A stretch of DNA of 9,319 bases from the IMG/VR virus record IMGVR_UViG_2547132488_000013. One strand, given 5' to 3'. This document shows positions 410 to 7,467 of this stretch, one piece after another. Source of the DNA: a virus. Taxonomy: Duplodnaviria; Heunggongvirae; Uroviricota; Caudoviricetes. Position numbers and translations under genes: made by a program. Each line of letters begins with the position of its first letter. Positions within the stretch are counted from its first letter, which is position 1. Under the pieces are notes generated by a model that was given only the letters and a program-made list of their open reading frames with translations, was not told the origin of the DNA and did no database searches.

Positions 410-1057
410 CTATAGGTTGAACTGTACACCTTTTGCTACGGCAACAATTTTACACTCTGGCGTAAGCAAGGATGATTGATAGCGCGGATTAAGAGGACTT
501 AAATACACAAGTTTTCCATCAATAACTAATTTTTTTATAGTCATAGACGGTTCATTTGTAAGTGGATCCGGAACTATTACAGCGACGATACTGCCATTTT
601 TATAACTTTCTCCTGGTCTTAGGATCACTGTGGCACCAACCGGGATACTCGGCGACCCTGATGGGTTATGCATAGTGTCATCAGGCATTGAAACGGCAAA
701 ATCACCTTCCACTACATCAAAAAATGTGGTGATCCTATCGACATTTCCCATTGTTTTCTCTCCTTCTAAGATTAGGAAAGAAATCGCGTCACCCCACGAA
801 AAGTAGGGGATCTTGGTGCCTGGATTGCTCTGCACAAAAGATAGTTCAGGAGATGATACTCCATACAGGAGATAGGACTCAGTAGTTCCTAATGCTTGGG
901 CTAACTTACTTAGAGCTTTGCTGCCGGGTTCGTTTAGATCTTTCTCCCAGTACCCTATAGTAACTCCAGTCACGCCTGAAAGCTTACCCAGTTCTACTTG
1001 AGTGAGCCCCTTATCTTTTCTGAGTCTCTTAAGCCTGATGCCAAGGCTTTCCATCAT
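410..1057 (-). CDS. CI-like prophage repressor, N-terminal HTH (XRE-type) plus C-terminal LexA/S24 peptidase-like autocleavage domain
   Basis: 215-aa ORF. N-terminus LKRLRKDKGLTQVELGKLSGVTGVTIGYWE is a typical HTH. C-terminal half has an S24-like serine context (GDFAVSMPDDTM) and a downstream lysine (TIKKLVIDGKLVYL). Divergent from a cro-like gene across a 96-bp operator region. Confidence 0.85.
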   Translation of the reverse strand: MMESLGIRLKRLRKDKGLTQVELGKLSGVTGVTIGYWEKDLNEPGSKALSKLAQALGTTESYLLYGVSSPELSFVQSNPGTKIPYFSWGDAISFLILEGEKTMGNVDRITTFFDVVEGDFAVSMPDDTMHNPSGSPSIPVGATVILRPGESYKNGSIVAVIVPDPLTNEPSMTIKKLVIDGKLVYLSPLNPRYQSSLLTPECKIVAVAKGVQFNL

Positions 1058-1086
1058 TTTCTCCCGTGAGTTGAATATAAATTATT

Positions 1087-1127
1087 TTAGATTGCATTGA
1101 CCTAAAAAAAATTATCTTGTAATCTAA
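1087..1127 (+). promoter_or_regulatory. Rightward PR-like promoter bracketed by an inverted repeat (candidate operator)
   Basis: TTGACC (1097-1102), 17-bp spacer, TAATCT (1120-1125), upstream of SD AGGAGG (1143-1148) and the cro-like ATG at 1154. Inverted repeat TTAGATTGCA (1087-1096) and TGTAATCTAA (1118-1127, reverse complement TTAGATTACA) abuts the -35 and overlaps the -10. Confidence 0.5.
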
Positions 1128-1153
1128 AAATACTTATATTTTAGGAGGGTGAA

Positions 1154-1381
1154 ATGCGAGTTGATGAACTTGTTCAGTTTTTTGGCTCTGTTCAGAGGGT
1201 CGCTGATTTTTATGGGATAACCCGCGAAGCTATTTACATGTGGCGTAAGCGTCCTGGTGAAATAGTTCCGAAAGGGAGAGCTGCGGAAGCTGCTGCATGC
1301 TCCAAGGGGAAACTATCTTTGAACCCAGAACTTTACAAAAAGAAGGATACCACTCAGAGCGAAAGGAAGAGTGATTCATGA
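1154..1381 (+). CDS. Cro/YdaS-family small DNA-binding regulator
   Basis: 75-aa ORF with strong SD, divergent from the repressor. HTH-like segment GSVQRVADFYGITREAIYMWRKRPGEIVP fits the YdaS/Cro-type pattern. Stop overlaps the next start (ATGA at 1378-1381). Confidence 0.75.
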   Translation: MRVDELVQFFGSVQRVADFYGITREAIYMWRKRPGEIVPKGRAAEAAACSKGKLSLNPELYKKKDTTQSERKSDS

Positions 1382-1803
1382 AAATCAAGCATGAACACAT
1401 CCGCATGGCGATGAATGCCTGGGCGCATCCGGACGGCGAGAAAGTACCGGCTGCGAAAATTACCAAAGCGTATTTCGAACTGGGTATGACGTTCCCGGAA
1501 TTGTACGACGACAGCCATCCGGAAGCCCTGGCCCGCAATACTCAGAAAATTTTCCGCTGGGTAGAGAAAGACACCCCTGATGCTGTTGAAAAAATTCAGG
1601 CGTTGTTACCAGCGATCGAAAAAGCAATGCCGCCTCTGCTGGTGGCCCGAATGCGCAGCCACAGTTCAGCCTTTTTTCGGGAACTGGTGGAGACGCGGGA
1701 ACGACTGGTGAGAGACGCTGATGATTTTGTCGCAGTGGCGATCGCTGGTTTCAATCAGATGAATCGTGGTGGCCCGGCGGGAAATGCCGTGGTCGTTCAT
1801 TAA
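1378..1803 (+). CDS. YdaT-like protein (proposed CII functional analog in Rac-type prophages)
   Basis: 141-aa ORF translationally coupled to the cro-like gene. N-terminus MKIKHEHI and the position immediately after a YdaS-like gene match my recollection of Rac-type ydaS-ydaT pairs. Family assignment is from memory, not a search. Confidence 0.5.
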   Translation: MKIKHEHIRMAMNAWAHPDGEKVPAAKITKAYFELGMTFPELYDDSHPEALARNTQKIFRWVEKDTPDAVEKIQALLPAIEKAMPPLLVARMRSHSSAFFRELVETRERLVRDADDFVAVAIAGFNQMNRGGPAGNAVVVH

Positions 1804-1824
1804 GAATAGTACAGGAGAAAATGG

Positions 1825-2118
1825 ATGACATTTACAAATGAAGGTCGAATTGTTTTTGATTTTGAGTACGAAACACCATTGCAGAGATTGATTATGTTAA
1901 GAATTTTCTGCTCTGGGAGTGGTGATGGTGGGCGCGAAAAGCGTTTTGAAGATCAGGAATTCCGACGTTTTTGTTGTTGTACGTTTGATGAGTTTGAGCA
2001 GGCTATCGCGAAACTTATCGAGATGGGAGTGATTCATAAAATAAGTTATGGATATCAATACGGAAAGCCATCAAGCGGTTACATCATCAAAGATCCGGGT
2101 GAAATTATTCAGTTATGA
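1825..2118 (+). CDS. Hypothetical protein (97 aa)
   Basis: ORF with SD AGGAG (1813-1817); stop overlaps the start of the replication gene (ATGA 2115-2118), indicating co-translation in the early-right operon. Confidence 0.65.
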   Translation: MTFTNEGRIVFDFEYETPLQRLIMLRIFCSGSGDGGREKRFEDQEFRRFCCCTFDEFEQAIAKLIEMGVIHKISYGYQYGKPSSGYIIKDPGEIIQL

Positions 2119-3080
2119 GTCTTCTTTTTGCTGAACGTCCGCTGGTTATTAACACGCATCTGGCGATGAAAATTGGCCTGAACGAAGCCATCGTGTTGCA
2201 GCAGCTGCATTACTGGTTGAGAGATACCGGTTCCGGCATGGAATGTGATGGTGTTCGCTGGATTTATAACACAACAGAACAATGGCTGGAACAGTTCCCG
2301 TTCTGGTCAGAGTCAACGTTAAAACGCGCATTTGCAAGTCTGAAAACGCTGGGGCTTTTGCGTTGCGAAAAGCTCAACAAATCAAAGCGTGACATGACTA
2401 ATTTTTACACGATTAATTACGAGAGCGAGCTTTTAGATGGTGGCAAAGTGAGCGAATCCATCAGGTCAAAATGCGCTGCTCCATCAGGTCAAAATGACAC
2501 GATGGAAGAGGTCAAAATGAAACGCTCCATTGGTTCAAAACGACCCAATGTCATCGGGTCAAAATGGCCCGATGATCTTACAGAGAATACAACAGAGATT
2601 ACTACAGAGAATAAAAATACTTCTCGTCCGGAAGCTTCGCAACCGGACCCGCAGACGGCTGAACAGGATTTTTTAACCCGACACTCTGACGCGGTTGTGT
2701 TCAGTGCGAAAAAACGCCAGTGGGGCAGCCAGGAAGATTTAGCGTGTGCGCAGTGGATCTGGGGACGAATCGTGAGTCTTTACGAACAGGCTGCCAGCGA
2801 TGATGGTGAGATCACGCGACCGAAAGAACCCAACTGGACTGCATGGGCCAATGACGTGCGCACAATGCGGATGCTTGATGGCAGAACTCACAGGCAAATT
2901 TGCGAAATGTTTGGTCGGGTACAGCGGGATCCCTTTTGGGTAAAAAATATCATGAGTCCGTCAAAGCTTCGTGAAAAATGGGACGAACTGGTCATCCGCC
3001 TGGGGCGTTCGCCTGTACAGCGTTGTGTGAATCACATTTCTGAACCGGACACCGAAATTCCGCCTGGGTTCAGGGGGTGA
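2115..3080 (+). CDS. Phage replication initiator (O-like organisation: N-terminal DNA-binding domain, low-complexity linker encoded by iterons, C-terminal domain)
   Basis: 321-aa ORF in the position of a lambdoid replication gene. An iteron array and AT-rich repeats lie inside its linker-coding region, as in lambda O. The C-terminal domain (FWVKNIMSPSKLREKWDELV) may be DnaT-like; unverified. Confidence 0.7.
   Translation: MSLLFAERPLVINTHLAMKIGLNEAIVLQQLHYWLRDTGSGMECDGVRWIYNTTEQWLEQFPFWSESTLKRAFASLKTLGLLRCEKLNKSKRDMTNFYTINYESELLDGGKVSESIRSKCAAPSGQNDTMEEVKMKRSIGSKRPNVIGSKWPDDLTENTTEITTENKNTSRPEASQPDPQTAEQDFLTRHSDAVVFSAKKRQWGSQEDLACAQWIWGRIVSLYEQAASDDGEITRPKEPNWTAWANDVRTMRMLDGRTHRQICEMFGRVQRDPFWVKNIMSPSKLREKWDELVIRLGRSPVQRCVNHISEPDTEIPPGFRG
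2457..2620 (+). repeat. Candidate origin of replication: five iterons plus three AT-rich 12-bp repeats
   Basis: GGT(C/T)AAAA(T/C)G cores at 2464, 2487, 2510, 2532 and 2557 (spacing 23, 23, 22, 25 bp). The first two share the 17-mer TCCATCAGGTCAAAATG. Followed by ACAGAGA(A/T)TA at 2580, 2592 and 2604. Confidence 0.6.
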
Positions 3081-3120
3081 GTGTTTATTTCAGGTCATGA
3101 GATAATTTTCAGGAGGAGTT

Positions 3121-3543
3121 GTGGCAAAAGTTTTTACACAGGAAGAGCGAGAAAAAATTAAAGGGCAGGTTGTTGAACTTGTACGCCAGAGTGGGCGCGA
3201 GACGTTACGGCAACTGGAAGCCAAGACAGGTGCGACAAGATATCTGATGAGCGTTCTCGCAAGAGAGCTGGTTGCCAGTGGCGATGTATACAACTCTGGT
3301 TACGGGTTATTCCCGTCTGAACAGGCTCGTAAGGACTGGCAAAACGCCCGCAAAAAACTCTCGAGAGCAAAGCTGAAGAAAACATCTGTAGTTGATCCGG
3401 ACCTTATCTGGTCGTTACCAGACGGAGAAATACGCCGCTACGACAGGCGTCAGAACATAATCTGTCGCGAGTGCCGGAAGAGTGAGGTTATGCAGCGAGT
3501 GCTGGCGTTTTATCAGGGGAAATTTCAGGAGGTGATGCTGTGA
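3121..3543 (+). CDS. Hypothetical protein (140 aa), basic, with C-terminal CxxC
   Basis: GTG start 4 nt after SD AGGAGG (3111-3116). Contains CRECRK. Stop overlaps the next ORF start (GTGA at 3540-3543). Confidence 0.6.
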   Translation: MAKVFTQEEREKIKGQVVELVRQSGRETLRQLEAKTGATRYLMSVLARELVASGDVYNSGYGLFPSEQARKDWQNARKKLSRAKLKKTSVVDPDLIWSLPDGEIRRYDRRQNIICRECRKSEVMQRVLAFYQGKFQEVML

Positions 3544-4736: not shown

Positions 4737-5159
4737 ATGACCACTATTACCAAAGAACGCGCGGAGATTAAATCATTCATCACTGGTTTCCTGAGCGACC
4801 CGGCGCACGATAACCAATCCTCAGACAGCCTGCTTGCCAATGTGTTTCGTATCGCCCTGGCATCACTGGAAGCAGAACCAGTTGCATGGACTGATGACGA
4901 GGAACTGCGAGATGTTGAGCGAATTGGTTTAGGTTATTTATTACCTTGTCCTCCAGATAAATACGCAGACCCGCGTCGTGTAATTCCGCTGTATCGTGTG
5001 CCGCCAGCTCCTACAGTGCAGGCACAGGGCATTGAGATCGCAATAAACGAACTGGCGTCTCTGTCCCCACAGCTGGATAAACGAGCGGTGGAAACTCTTT
5101 CCATGGCTGTGGCACATCTACGCAAACTGGTTAAGAAGCAGTTGCAGGCTAAGGAATGA
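4737..5159 (+). CDS. Hypothetical protein (140 aa); N-terminal module paralogous to the next gene
   Basis: ATG 4737 with SD GAGGA (4725-4729). Shares ITKER...RIALASLEAEPVA with the downstream ORF. Confidence 0.7.
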   Translation: MTTITKERAEIKSFITGFLSDPAHDNQSSDSLLANVFRIALASLEAEPVAWTDDEELRDVERIGLGYLLPCPPDKYADPRRVIPLYRVPPAPTVQAQGIEIAINELASLSPQLDKRAVETLSMAVAHLRKLVKKQLQAKE

Positions 5160-5162
5160 CAC

Positions 5163-5957
5163 ATGAACGCTATCACCAAAGAACGTATTGAATTGTTCAT
5201 TAAAAATTCGCTTGAAAACGGGTTTACTCGTAGCGAACAAATGGAAGTGGCACGGATTGCTTTGGCATCGCTGGAAGCAGAACCGGTTGCAGTAAACGAC
5301 GACATGGCTTACGCATTCCATCACGCATTGTCAGATTCATCGCTAGGCGCTGATGAAGTAGAGGAAATTAAGGCCGGTTTGCGTGCTGCCTTTGCCAACG
5401 TCACTATCCAACCAGAGCCGGTAGTGCCGGATGAAATCGAGCCAGACGATAGCAATACGTTTGATTATGTTGATGGCTGGAACGCCTGCCGCGCCGCCAT
5501 GCTTCAGAGTCAGAGGGAAGGCAACCCTCATGTAACCCCGGCTCGCCTGCCTGGTGGTTTCACTATTGAGGATGCGAAGGAGTTACATGAAGACCTGGTA
5601 CGCAGCCACATAAGCCAGGCTTTAAGTGGCGAGAAGATGAAAAAGAAAGATCGTGATGCTGATTTGCGCTGGATTCATGGCGTTATAGTACAGGCAGCGT
5701 GGTTTGTGAAAGCTTCACTGGATGCGTTGCCTGAACCGCTGCGGGAGGAGAAGGGAGGAAGTGCCAACTGTACTGCCAGTCATGGTACAACCGACAATCC
5801 ACCAGTACCAGGCAAACAGACTGACGAATTAACCATGCTGGTTAAGCAATTGGTCAGTCAACTGAAGAAAGTGAAGCCGGACTGTAAATTGCCGGATAAG
5901 GCGATGGACTACCTGAAGCGGAACGAACTGATAAGTGCGGAGGATGTTTTGCGATGA
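5163..5957 (+). CDS. Hypothetical protein (264 aa); N-terminal module paralogous to the preceding gene
   Basis: ATG 5163 with SD AAGGA (5151-5155). N-terminus MNAITKERIELFIKNSLENGFTRSEQMEVARIALASLEAEPVA. Acidic central region. Confidence 0.75.
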   Translation: MNAITKERIELFIKNSLENGFTRSEQMEVARIALASLEAEPVAVNDDMAYAFHHALSDSSLGADEVEEIKAGLRAAFANVTIQPEPVVPDEIEPDDSNTFDYVDGWNACRAAMLQSQREGNPHVTPARLPGGFTIEDAKELHEDLVRSHISQALSGEKMKKKDRDADLRWIHGVIVQAAWFVKASLDALPEPLREEKGGSANCTASHGTTDNPPVPGKQTDELTMLVKQLVSQLKKVKPDCKLPDKAMDYLKRNELISAEDVLR

Positions 5958-6073: not shown

Positions 6074-6294
6074 GAAGGAAACAAAACAGAAACAACAATT
6101 GCCGTTACCTGTTGTTACCATGGCAAGTAAACGTATCTCAGGCGAGCGCATTGCACCGTTCTGACGCAGATAAATTAGCCATGGATAGATGGTGCTGGCA
6201 ATAAAAAATAGCGTTTTCTTATCGGTGTCGGTAAGATTGCTGCGGGTGCTTGAGGCTGTCTGCCTCGGGCATGCCACTGTAAGGCAGGCAGAGA

Positions 6295-6397
6295 AAAGCC
6301 CCAGTTAACATTACGCGTCCGGCAAGACGCTTAACATTAATCTGAGGCTCCCTATGCATGACAACATCAGGTTAGCCTCTTACGTGCCGAAAGGCAA
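6295..6397 (-). ncRNA. sok: Candidate Sok-like antisense RNA locus (promoter plus expected transcript over the mok start)
   Basis: Minus strand reads TTGCCT (plus 6392-6397), 17-nt spacer, TAACCT (plus 6369-6374), predicting a leftward transcript from about 6362 across the mok start (6354-6356). This is where Sok maps in hok/sok loci. Transcript 3' end not identified. Confidence 0.3.
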
Positions 6398-6566
6398 GGA
6401 GAAGCAGGCTATGAAGCAGCAAAAGGCGATGTTAATCGCCCTGATCGTCATCTGTTTAACCGTCATAGTGACGGCACTGGTAACGAGGAAAGACCTCTGC
6501 GAGGTACGAATCCGAACCGGCCAGACGGAGGTCGCTGTCTTCACAGCTTACGAACCTGAGGAGTAA
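6354..6566 (+). CDS. mok: Mok-like in-frame N-terminal extension of hok (overlapping regulatory reading frame)
   Basis: ATG 6354 opens a 70-codon frame whose last 51 codons are hok. This matches the layout I recall for chromosomal mok/hok pairs such as mokC/hokC. Confidence 0.4.
   Translation: MHDNIRLASYVPKGKEKQAMKQQKAMLIALIVICLTVIVTALVTRKDLCEVRIRTGQTEVAVFTAYEPEE
6411..6566 (+). CDS. hok: Hok/Gef-family type I toxin (small membrane-depolarising peptide)
   Basis: 51 aa: MKQQKAMLIALIVICLTVIVTALVTRKDLCEVRIRTGQTEVAVFTAYEPEE. N-terminal TM helix and conserved RKDLCEVRIRTGQTEVAVFTAYE signature of Hok/Gef/RelF. SD AAGGAG (6396-6401) 9 nt upstream. Confidence 0.85.
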   Translation: MKQQKAMLIALIVICLTVIVTALVTRKDLCEVRIRTGQTEVAVFTAYEPEE

Positions 6567-6654: not shown

Positions 6655-6781
6655 TCGTCGCATTATGAGGTTGTAATTTTAGCTACCATTAGACTATCCT
6701 AAGGATCTCAAACAGATCTATTTTGCATCAAATTTGGTGCATGGCTTTGCCAATAATCGGAAAACAAAAGGACTCATTAGT

Positions 6782-6961
6782 ATGAGCTGCCCACTCAAAA
6801 AACACACGCGGTTGAGTATTCCGCCTCGCGATAAAAGCGTTGTGGCAGTCCCTCGCCCAGCGATTGATGAAAACTGCGCACATCGTGAACAAGTGAAAAA
6901 TGCTTTTGATTTCGGTTTTTCTCGTTATGAGAAAGCCATGGAAGACCTCTCTAAAGTGTAA
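6782..6961 (+). CDS. Small ORF upstream of the Doc-family toxin; putative cognate antitoxin
   Basis: ATG 6782 with SD AAGGA (6768-6772), 59 aa. Ends 20 nt before the Doc-like gene, the usual antitoxin-first layout. The track start at 6734 is a TTG with no SD. No recognisable Phd signature; role inferred from position only. Confidence 0.5.
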   Translation: MSCPLKKHTRLSIPPRDKSVVAVPRPAIDENCAHREQVKNAFDFGFSRYEKAMEDLSKV

Positions 6962-6981: not shown

Positions 6982-7467
6982 ATGGCTGAGATTGTTGAAG
7001 GTGTGCATTACCTTACGGTTGATGATCTTGTTGAAATCAATCGTTCCCTAATTGAATTACAGACGCCAGATGAGCCCGTTGGTGTTCTGAGTCCAGATAA
7101 CTTAAGTTCTTCTCAGGCCCGTCCCAGCATGGTTCGATGGTATGAACAGATCAATGACATGTTTGTACTGGCATCGGTATTGATTGAAAGTCTGATTCAG
7201 AATCATCCGTTTGCTAATGCGAACAAACGAACAGCTATGATGGCTGGTTACGTCTTCTTGTTGTTGAATGGCTATGAGTTAACAGCACCAGGCGATGAAA
7301 TCGTGGAAATGGCAGAGGGACTGGCCTGCAAAACCTATACTCGAGAAGATCTCGAGAACTGGTTGTGTTATTGGTCTCGTGCGTATGACAGCCGGGAATT
7401 ATGTAAAACAGGCGCAACTATTGTTTTGTATGAAACTATCAAGCTTAAAATAGAACAGCAAAACTAA
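6982..7467 (+). CDS. doc: Doc (death-on-curing) / Fic-fold family toxin
   Basis: 161-aa ORF containing HPFANANKRTAMMAGYVFLLLNGYEL, which matches the Doc-type catalytic motif (compare P1 Doc HIFNDANKRTA). Confidence 0.8.
   Translation: MAEIVEGVHYLTVDDLVEINRSLIELQTPDEPVGVLSPDNLSSSQARPSMVRWYEQINDMFVLASVLIESLIQNHPFANANKRTAMMAGYVFLLLNGYELTAPGDEIVEMAEGLACKTYTREDLENWLCYWSRAYDSRELCKTGATIVLYETIKLKIEQQN

Follow-up and report, generated by a model that had tools for sequence, protein, structure and literature searches.

A probable replication origin inside the initiator gene of a lambdoid prophage, built from phased 23-bp iterons followed by conserved 12-mers

Here we propose that positions 2436-2622 of a 9,319-nucleotide stretch of tailed-phage DNA (IMG/VR virus record IMGVR_UViG_2547132488_000013; Caudoviricetes; the whole stretch is called the window below) are the origin at which a lambdoid prophage begins replication and that this origin sits within the gene for its own initiator, a reading to which we assign a probability of about 0.85. 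The window corresponds to the early-right region of this prophage, whose host is Escherichia-like, and the gene is a 321-amino-acid (aa) open reading frame (ORF) that the initial annotation of this DNA had already called a replication gene. That identification is borne out by the membership of the protein in PHROG 391 ("replication initiation O-like", 9e-96) and by a C-terminal domain related to that of the lambda O protein. Every point of the initial reading open to a computational test was upheld, with the corrections and qualifications given below. The proposal is carried by direct observations on the anatomy of the repeats, on selection at the level of the DNA, on conservation among orthologues, on the co-inheritance of the initiator domain and the repeats as a module, on the homology of the C-domain to that of lambda O and on the match to the AT-rich region of lambda. 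It is a textbook arrangement that the initiator gene contains the origin and that an AT-rich block comes after the iterons, but this type of origin is scarcely annotated; less familiar are the size and phylogenetic reach of an N-domain family that has no profile model, the near-identical iteron core in phages of Gram-negative and Gram-positive hosts and the fixed CAGAGAnTAC array that accompanies it.

First, the segment combines an array of phased iterons with a block of tandem 12-mers (Table 1). A repeat search returned five clear 23-nt direct repeats with start-to-start distances of 23, 23, 23 and 24 nt, which agrees with the five core copies that had been noticed inside the ORF and, roughly, with the spacing of two helical turns given for them; the period is corrected to 23-24 bp, or about 2.2 helical turns, and the array begins about 20 nt earlier than had been thought, with a sixth, degenerate copy (iteron 0) at whose position the orthologues L003 and L004 hold a good iteron. 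Together, the iterons occupy nucleotides 322-460 of the 966-nt gene. The core is exactly GGTCAAAATG in four copies and GTTCAAAACG in one, and the exact 10-mer is found four times, all within 103 bp and in one phase, where about 0.02 occurrences are expected (4^-10 arithmetic, 2 x 9319 nt). The looser count is at chance level (11 sites at up to two mismatches against 12 expected, which is not significant alone), and the repeat signal rests on these exact and phased copies. The plan of an iteron is CATCGGGT-CAAAATG-GCCCGATG, with inverted arms that converge on an A-tract, and such arms surround the core in three of the six copies (iterons 2, 4 and 5). Directly after the iterons, and just as the initial annotation had it, three tandem ACAGAGAWTA units stand without mismatch at 2580, 2592 and 2604; at up to one mismatch the window holds four such sites against 0.94 expected, a number that 3 of 200 shuffles reach. 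Tandem Repeats Finder recovers one array of period 23 (score 73) and one of period 12 (2580-2613, score 54), and detects no second repeat array elsewhere in the window. In terms of nearest-neighbour stability, the 12-mer block is the lowest point of the O-like gene (z = 2.6), whose least stable 40 bp begin 5 bases past iteron 5. The number of 12-mers differs among near-identical relatives (four in L019 and L093, one in L033, three in the window), and their gain or loss stays in frame because one unit equals four codons.

Second, selection in the repeat segment acts on the DNA and not on the peptide. This dominance of constraint at the DNA level had been suspected from the low-complexity translation, and it is now shown directly, on firmer grounds, by the reading frames, by a codon test and by a drop in third-codon polymorphism. 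Because the 23-nt period shifts the frame at each copy, one and the same core is translated in three ways, as SGQN, VKM and GSK. We compared 51 distinct close alleles of the 321-aa gene: the share of third-codon sites that are polymorphic is 49% for the N-domain, 58% for the C part and 20% for the repeat segment, and overall polymorphism is alike in the repeat segment and the rest of the gene; with the third-codon excess gone at similar overall polymorphism, the coding signature is therefore lost in the repeat segment. For the 12-mers, a conservation table of pattern-selected units is partly circular, and we used instead a test anchored on the TExT peptide, in which the DNA is not pre-selected, at 29 non-redundant loci. 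Thr is encoded by ACA and Glu by GAG in 69 of 70 instances each, and the codon that follows Glu varies at its second base (AAT, ATT, AGT, ACT), so that the residue is Asn, Ile, Ser or Thr. As a control, in the N-domains that these genes encode, Thr is spread over ACG (57), ACC (65), ACA (37) and ACT (33) and Glu over GAA (91) and GAG (110), and the commonest third base at conserved residues averages only 0.51. Moreover, in some lineages (L129, L131, L138 and L173) the first 12-mer unit lies 11 nt, not 12, from the next and so falls in another frame, where it reads as DRDY/TETT in L129 and L131 and as IPETTQRIPETT in Bacillus phage TP21-L (L173). An explanation in which the repeats are selected as a low-complexity or repetitive linker peptide (TENT/TEIT), without any function of the DNA, can point to the predicted disorder of the linker that the segment encodes and to the recurrence of the TExT peptide in orthologues. 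However, it does not account for one DNA core read in three frames, for near-invariant synonymous positions next to a non-synonymous middle base of the third codon that varies freely, for 11-nt-spaced units in other frames or for the vanished excess of third-codon polymorphism. A repeat at the protein level is rejected on the reading frames and the codon usage, and we give this explanation a very small chance.

Third, the N-domain, the iterons and the 12-mers are inherited together as one module. The N-domain family, for which Pfam has no model, comprises 10,083 representatives of 50%-identity clusters in an exhaustive search (E up to 1e-3), and relatives at 45-60% identity occur in Enterobacterales, Pseudomonas, Acinetobacter, Campylobacterales, Comamonas, Bacillus, Staphylococcus, Lactobacillus and other groups. 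Many distant members, at a length of 400-880 aa, carry the domain twice (P0125-P0127, P0134, P0148 and others). The comparison of iterons among relatives that the initial annotation had called for found the repeats in orthologues from many genera, so that the refuting case named there, their absence from orthologous genes, does not hold. In almost every proteobacterial locus, 23 nt is the strongest period of the 340 nt past the N-domain, and the iterons take the form (C/G)AT(C/G)nGG-n-CAAAWTG-n-CCn(C/G)AT(C/G), in 3-6 copies at 22-24 bp. The arms that flank the core vary symmetrically by lineage (GGT..ACC, GGG..CCC, GGA..TCC, GTG..CAC, GAT..ATC, GTAT..ATAC), a pattern that would fit, as expected, a dimeric binder with shifting specificity. 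Both the iteron design and the CAGAGAnTAC array are also present in Bacillus phage TP21-L and in Staphylococcus phage phiIPLA88, an S. aureus phage with the iteron CATCGGGACAAAATGGCCCGA, to be compared with CATCGGGTCAAAATGGCCCGATG of iteron 5 in the window. An [A/C]CAGAGAnTAC array lies within a few bases downstream of the iterons in 102 of 123 distinct orthologous regions, Firmicute, Bacteroidota and Thermomicrobiales sequences included. The 12-mers had been regarded as a plausible DNA-unwinding element; as the least stable segment of the gene, and a lambda-like one, they suit that role, and a motif that is conserved across phyla is more than generic AT-rich DNA.

The limits of the module can be read from mosaic relatives. 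Klebsiella phages match nucleotides 58-535 of the gene and SfII-type phages match nucleotides 497-875, which therefore places a joint right after the 12-mers, and protein alignments show one N-domain family fused to at least three unrelated C-domains. SfII itself shares the lambda-like C-domain and has a different N-domain, other iterons of 15 bp and no 12-mers. Thus, the N-domain, the iterons and the 12-mers travel together, since the joint falls after the 12-mers and the C-domains are swapped. Co-travelling modules of initiator specificity are classical in lambdoid phages. The 321-aa gene is also carried by the cultivated phages mEp460_ev081, HannyBb and PhiR42_1, at about 92% DNA identity.

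The arrangement had been said to mirror lambda ori within gene O, and this likeness holds for the position, the AT-rich region and the C-domain but not for the N-domain, which is outside the lambda O family, nor for the gene that follows, which is not P-like. Both systems place the origin within the initiator gene, between the N-domain and C-domain coding parts and at a matching relative position (the lambda iterons are annotated at nucleotides 349-433 of the 900-nt O gene), and build it from 4-6 dyad-symmetric iterons with a CAAAAyG-type centre (TCAAAACGA in lambda) at a spacing of 20-24 bp, with an A-rich, purine-skewed region of minimum stability directly after the last iteron. In lambda O, the least stable 40 bp begin 2 bases past iteron 4, and the corresponding 40 bp of the present gene are close to them in stability (-44.8 versus -44.4 kcal/mol in lambda O), GC content (0.28 versus 0.26) and purine content of the coding strand (0.63 versus 0.67). 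The C-domains are homologous, with 34% identity over 148 aa (E 2e-26, BLASTP; residues 147-294 against lambda O 135-270) in an alignment that begins within the peptide from the last iteron and the A-rich block, and the gene is part of an early-right operon with cro and a cII-like gene. In contrast, the N-domain belongs to another family, the iterons number six at 23 bp and not, as in lambda, four at about 19 bp, a conserved 12-mer makes up the AT-rich region, the P gene is absent after the O-like gene and a DnaT-like tail takes the place of the lambda O C-terminus. The lambda parallel is one of architecture and C-domain and not of the whole system.

A second counterpart is the experimentally mapped origin of plasmid pSK41. 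The N-terminal 120 residues of pSK41 Rep (319 aa) bind four Rep boxes that are located centrally in rep, residues 121-199 form a linker that the origin encodes and that can be dispensed with, and a C-domain specific to the host binds DnaG (PMC5703833); iterons of the RepA_N type are inverted repeats with a poly-A tract as their point of convergence (PMC7145576). At positions 13610-13745 of pSK41 (L176) we found four 22-bp GTGTCAAAAGGACAC boxes in rep, followed by about 2.5 copies of the AT-rich 15-mer GATACTGATTTTATT. The two systems share a three-part protein of nearly equal size (319 versus 321 aa), with an N-terminal domain of about 110-120 aa that binds, here presumably, boxes in the middle of its own gene and with a host-specific C-terminal domain (PMC5703833), an origin placed centrally in the gene that encodes the linker between the N- and C-terminal domains (predicted to be disordered here), iterons made of inverted repeats on an A-tract (GTGTCAAAAGGACAC at 22 bp versus GGTCAAAATGACC at 23 bp in the window) and AT-rich tandem repeats that follow the boxes. 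They differ in that the N-domain resembles neither pSK41 RepA nor Pfam RepA_N in sequence or profile, that the repeats after the boxes are 15-mers in pSK41 and ACAGAGAnTAC 12-mers here, and that the present gene combines a lambda-O-like C-domain with a phage setting whereas pSK41 is a plasmid.

The comparison with pSK41 and lambda also bears on whether the same protein might bind the repeats for autoregulation, copy-number control (handcuffing) or incompatibility, with replication starting elsewhere in the prophage. Plasmid iterons are established to have control roles as well, and arrays of binding sites are on their own no proof of initiation in a family for which we found no experiments in the literature searched. 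However, the least stable and strand-asymmetric segment of the gene directly follows the array, as it does in lambda, the layout agrees with that of the mapped pSK41 origin, and no second repeat array was detected in the window. In addition, two small plasmids, a 15-kb Paracaedibacter plasmid in which the gene adjoins parA and a 16-kb Bacillus weihaiensis plasmid, retain like internal repeats in a gene for an N-domain protein that is their only visible Rep candidate; the gene tables of these plasmids are incomplete, and we take them as supportive only. We consider a role of the repeats in regulation, with an origin at another site, very unlikely.

The dyad symmetry of the iterons could also mean that the 23-mers act as hairpins in single-stranded DNA or mRNA, either as a signal for primosome assembly or single-strand initiation or as a translational or transcriptional pause. 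Positions 2436-2622 do fold better than shuffled sequences (z = -3.2 as DNA and -3.25 as RNA), three of the iterons form hairpins, and the covariation of the arms keeps their complementarity across lineages. However, half of the copies in the window lack complementary arms, the core and the left arm stay conserved also in the absence of a conserved right arm, a dimeric DNA-binding protein would lead one to expect symmetric covariation just as much, no Rfam family matches at the repeats, and the iterons of lambda and pSK41, which share the dyad design, are bound as duplex (PMC5703833; lambda annotation). Hairpin formation as the reason for the repeats seems to us most improbable. A known RNA family or tRNA at the repeats was likewise discarded, the sole Rfam match of the window being sok at 6244-6416, and so was an internal promoter or terminator as the cause of the repeats: a scan of positions 1000-3300 gave no promoter-like site (0 matches to the sigma-70 consensus against 2.6 expected in shuffles) and terminator-like sites only at chance level.

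We therefore return to the origin reading and suggest how such an origin may work. Rightward early transcription from the immunity region would supply the 321-aa O-like protein, the presumed winged-helix N-terminal domain of which would bind, probably as dimers, to the six 23-bp semi-palindromic iterons by way of their inverted arms and CAAAATG core. The resulting nucleoprotein complex would strain the adjoining A-rich 12-mer block (2580-2615) and lead to its melting, and, in analogy to the 13-mers at plasmid origins, the initiator would probably contact one strand of the conserved 12-mer in a sequence-specific way. RepE and TrfA, two plasmid initiators, bind the iterons as duplex and at the same time the unwinding element as a single strand (PMC10602881). 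The 13-mers of oriC, RK2 oriV and mini-F resemble the present 12-mers in being tandem repeats of 12-13 nt, in forming an AT-rich block that adjoins the initiator sites and in a sequence that is conserved beyond composition; they differ in the motif itself, which is unrelated. Single-strand reading is proposed because the conservation of the 12-mers exceeds what easy melting needs, and by this analogy the chance that the initiator reads one strand of the 12-mers may be close to even, if slightly short of it. More generally, we tentatively suggest, at somewhat less than even odds, that the [A/C]CAGAGAnTAC array with its 11-12-nt units is a specific recognition element, read most likely by the initiator after melting. 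In the last step, the lambda-O-like C-domain and the DnaT-like tail would recruit the helicase-loading machinery of the host, which we invoke because no P, DnaC or DnaB-like protein is encoded in the window.

The C-terminal tails may bear on this step. The tail of the 321-aa protein, VQRCVNHISEPDTEIPPGFRG, is nearly identical to residues 159-179 of E. coli DnaT (PDB 2ru8, 6aep, 9zbt), which is the reason why RAST names relatives "Primosomal protein I". The motif (I/V)PxGFRG ends proteins with differing C-domains and is confined, within the family, to Enterobacterales members, and Firmicute members (Bacillus phage TP21-L, L160 and L137-L165) end in short acidic or aromatic tails (…EDIVLPF, …NKDDLPF, …EEDFRFDDET) that resemble the C-terminal tail of SSB. 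To judge from these sequences, members of the family seem to end in short linear motifs that are matched to their hosts. DopC, a domesticated lambda-O-like protein with the DnaT C-terminal motif (PDB 2ru8), has been read as belonging to a system for helicase matchmaking (Brezellec et al. 2017, PMC5509034). It resembles the 321-aa protein as an O-like protein that carries this motif and differs from it by a lambda-like N-terminus, the lack of iterons and its pairing with the P-like DopE (PMC5509034); the 321-aa protein has another N-domain, its gene contains iterons, and a P-like partner is not seen. The function of the DnaT C-terminal tail is not discussed in the 2026 preprimosome paper.

Several observations weigh against the origin reading or against parts of it. 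Recruitment of the helicase is its weakest part and is conjecture, because no helicase loader is encoded nearby: neither Pfam nor PHROG matches any ORF up to RusA to a helicase-loader or helicase family (P, DnaC, DnaB-like), and the gene after the O-like gene is DUF977/Ren-like and not a P-type loader. The N-domain, presumed here to bind the iterons, shows no sequence relation to the lambda O N-domain (no match to Pfam Phage_rep_O PF04492, hhalign probability 0.1), so that membership in the lambda O family is ruled out, nor to the N-terminus of pSK41 RepA (hhalign probability 0.12; no match to Pfam RepA_N PF06970), and a profile search of PDB sequences related it to no solved structure. For the whole 321-aa protein, Pfam gave no family at threshold and nothing even at E up to 10. 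The AlphaFold2 (AF2) model is of low confidence overall, with a mean predicted local distance difference test score (pLDDT) of 56, and resolves residues 14-108 of the N-domain at pLDDT 65-78 in the order H-H-b-b-H-H-b. The top Foldseek matches of this domain are the N-terminal domains of plasmid RepA proteins (4pql, 5kbj, 4pt7), and they are weak (E 5e-3, TM 0.52-0.56) and obtained with a model of only pLDDT 65-78; we take a RepA_N-like fold as a lead that the model suggests. The 12-mer block is AT-rich yet not extreme: within the window it comes only fifth to seventh, and stability is lower in intergenic control regions. The sequence does not tell whether this prophage is still competent for replication, and we found no replication, footprinting or melting experiments on this initiator family in the open-access literature, in which older phage work is thinly covered. 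Nothing relevant came from searching the same literature for origin studies of mEp460, SfII, PEp14 and phiIPLA88, and the motif strings returned only unrelated primer sequences; given the thin coverage of older phage work, we do not claim priority.

The wider gene order agrees with an early-right region (Table 1). The best genome match of the window is E. coli A8 (97% identity), and the closest protein cluster bears the name of E. albertii. Between the repressor and cro genes, the very AT-rich interval 1070-1146 must contain the rightward early promoter. Beyond the DUF977/Ren-like gene the rightward order continues with several genes of unknown function, hok/sok, a Doc-like toxin, DUF968/HNH and RusA.

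Table 1. Position of the proposed origin, of the parts of the initiator gene and of its neighbours in the window.
Feature	Position	Strand	Remarks
Iteron 0, degenerate, GATGGTGGCAAAGTGAGCGAATC	2436..2458	+	in phase, 23 nt upstream of iteron 1
Iteron 1, CATCAGGTCAAAATGCGCTGCTC	2459..2481	+	
Iteron 2, CATCAGGTCAAAATGACACGATG	2482..2504	+	dyad-symmetric arms
Iteron 3, GAAGAGGTCAAAATGAAACGCTC	2505..2527	+	
Iteron 4, CATTGGTTCAAAACGACCCAATG	2528..2550	+	variant core, dyad-symmetric arms
Iteron 5, CATCGGGTCAAAATGGCCCGATG	2552..2574	+	best dyad symmetry, 11-nt arms
Three tandem 12-mers, ACAGAGAATACA, ACAGAGATTACT, ACAGAGAATAAA	2580..2615	+	presumed DNA-unwinding element
AT-rich segment of minimum stability	2572..2622		A/purine-rich on coding strand; GC 27.5%, AT skew +0.59
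321-aa O-like ORF	2115..3080	+	
N-terminal domain (aa 1-108)	2115..2438	+	presumed iteron-binding winged-helix domain
Linker-coding segment (aa 109-174)	2439..2636	+	predicted disordered, pLDDT <30 (AF2); coincides with origin
Mosaic joint between N-domain/origin module and C-domain module	2611..2649		
C-terminal domain (aa 183-295)	2661..2999	+	lambda O C-domain homologue; pLDDT 70-85 (AF2)
21-aa C-terminal tail (aa 301-321), VQRCVNHISEPDTEIPPGFRG	3015..3077	+	near-identical to E. coli DnaT end
cI-type repressor	410-1057	-	
Cro	1154-1381		
cII/YdaT-like	1378-1803		
97-aa ORF	1825-2118		
DUF977/Ren-like gene	3121-3543		

Some further features of the window deserve mention. The 97-aa ORF shares 4 nt (ATGA) with the beginning of the O-like gene and has a weak match to PHROG 4617 ("replication initiation protein", 6e-8), and relatives have a small ORF at the corresponding position. 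Further to the right, a hok/sok type I toxin-antitoxin system occupies 6244-6566, where the Rfam match to sok (RF01794, 109.6 bits, 6244-6416) overlaps the start of a 70-aa Hok-like ORF (6354-6566). A toxin gene of the Fic/Doc family (Pfam Fic; PHROG "Doc-like toxin") lies at 6982-7467, and the small ORF upstream of it (6734-6961; phrog_2208, function unassigned) could be its antitoxin. The adjacent ORFs 4737-5159 and 5163-5957 have alike N-termini (M..ITKER.E…IALASLEAEPVA) and match the same PHROGs, 660, 60, 3323 and 5117, none with an assigned function, and by these sequences they look like a tandem partial duplication.

Finally, our analysis gives a name, prophage replication initiator, to an O-like gene whose close homologues are labelled "hypothetical protein" in RefSeq, and it offers a rule for annotation: repeats of 22-24 bp that share a CAAAWTG core, three to six in number and placed just past the N-domain, with CAGAGAnTAC repeats after them, would mark the origins of many temperate phages. 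Thousands of phages and some plasmids contain the module of N-domain, iterons and 12-mers, and the array and the N-domain family span Proteobacteria, Firmicutes, Bacteroidota and other phyla. How a single design of origin is fitted to different helicase-loading systems is suggested by the host-matched C-terminal tails; if this is true, variable tails, DnaT-like in Enterobacterales and SSB-like and acidic in Firmicutes, would plug a conserved origin core into the helicase loading of each host. Moreover, the fixed 12-mer provides a tractable test case for the question of whether phage winged-helix initiators read an unwinding element in a sequence-specific manner, and such reading, if true, would be a phage counterpart of the DnaA-trio or plasmid 13-mer mechanism.

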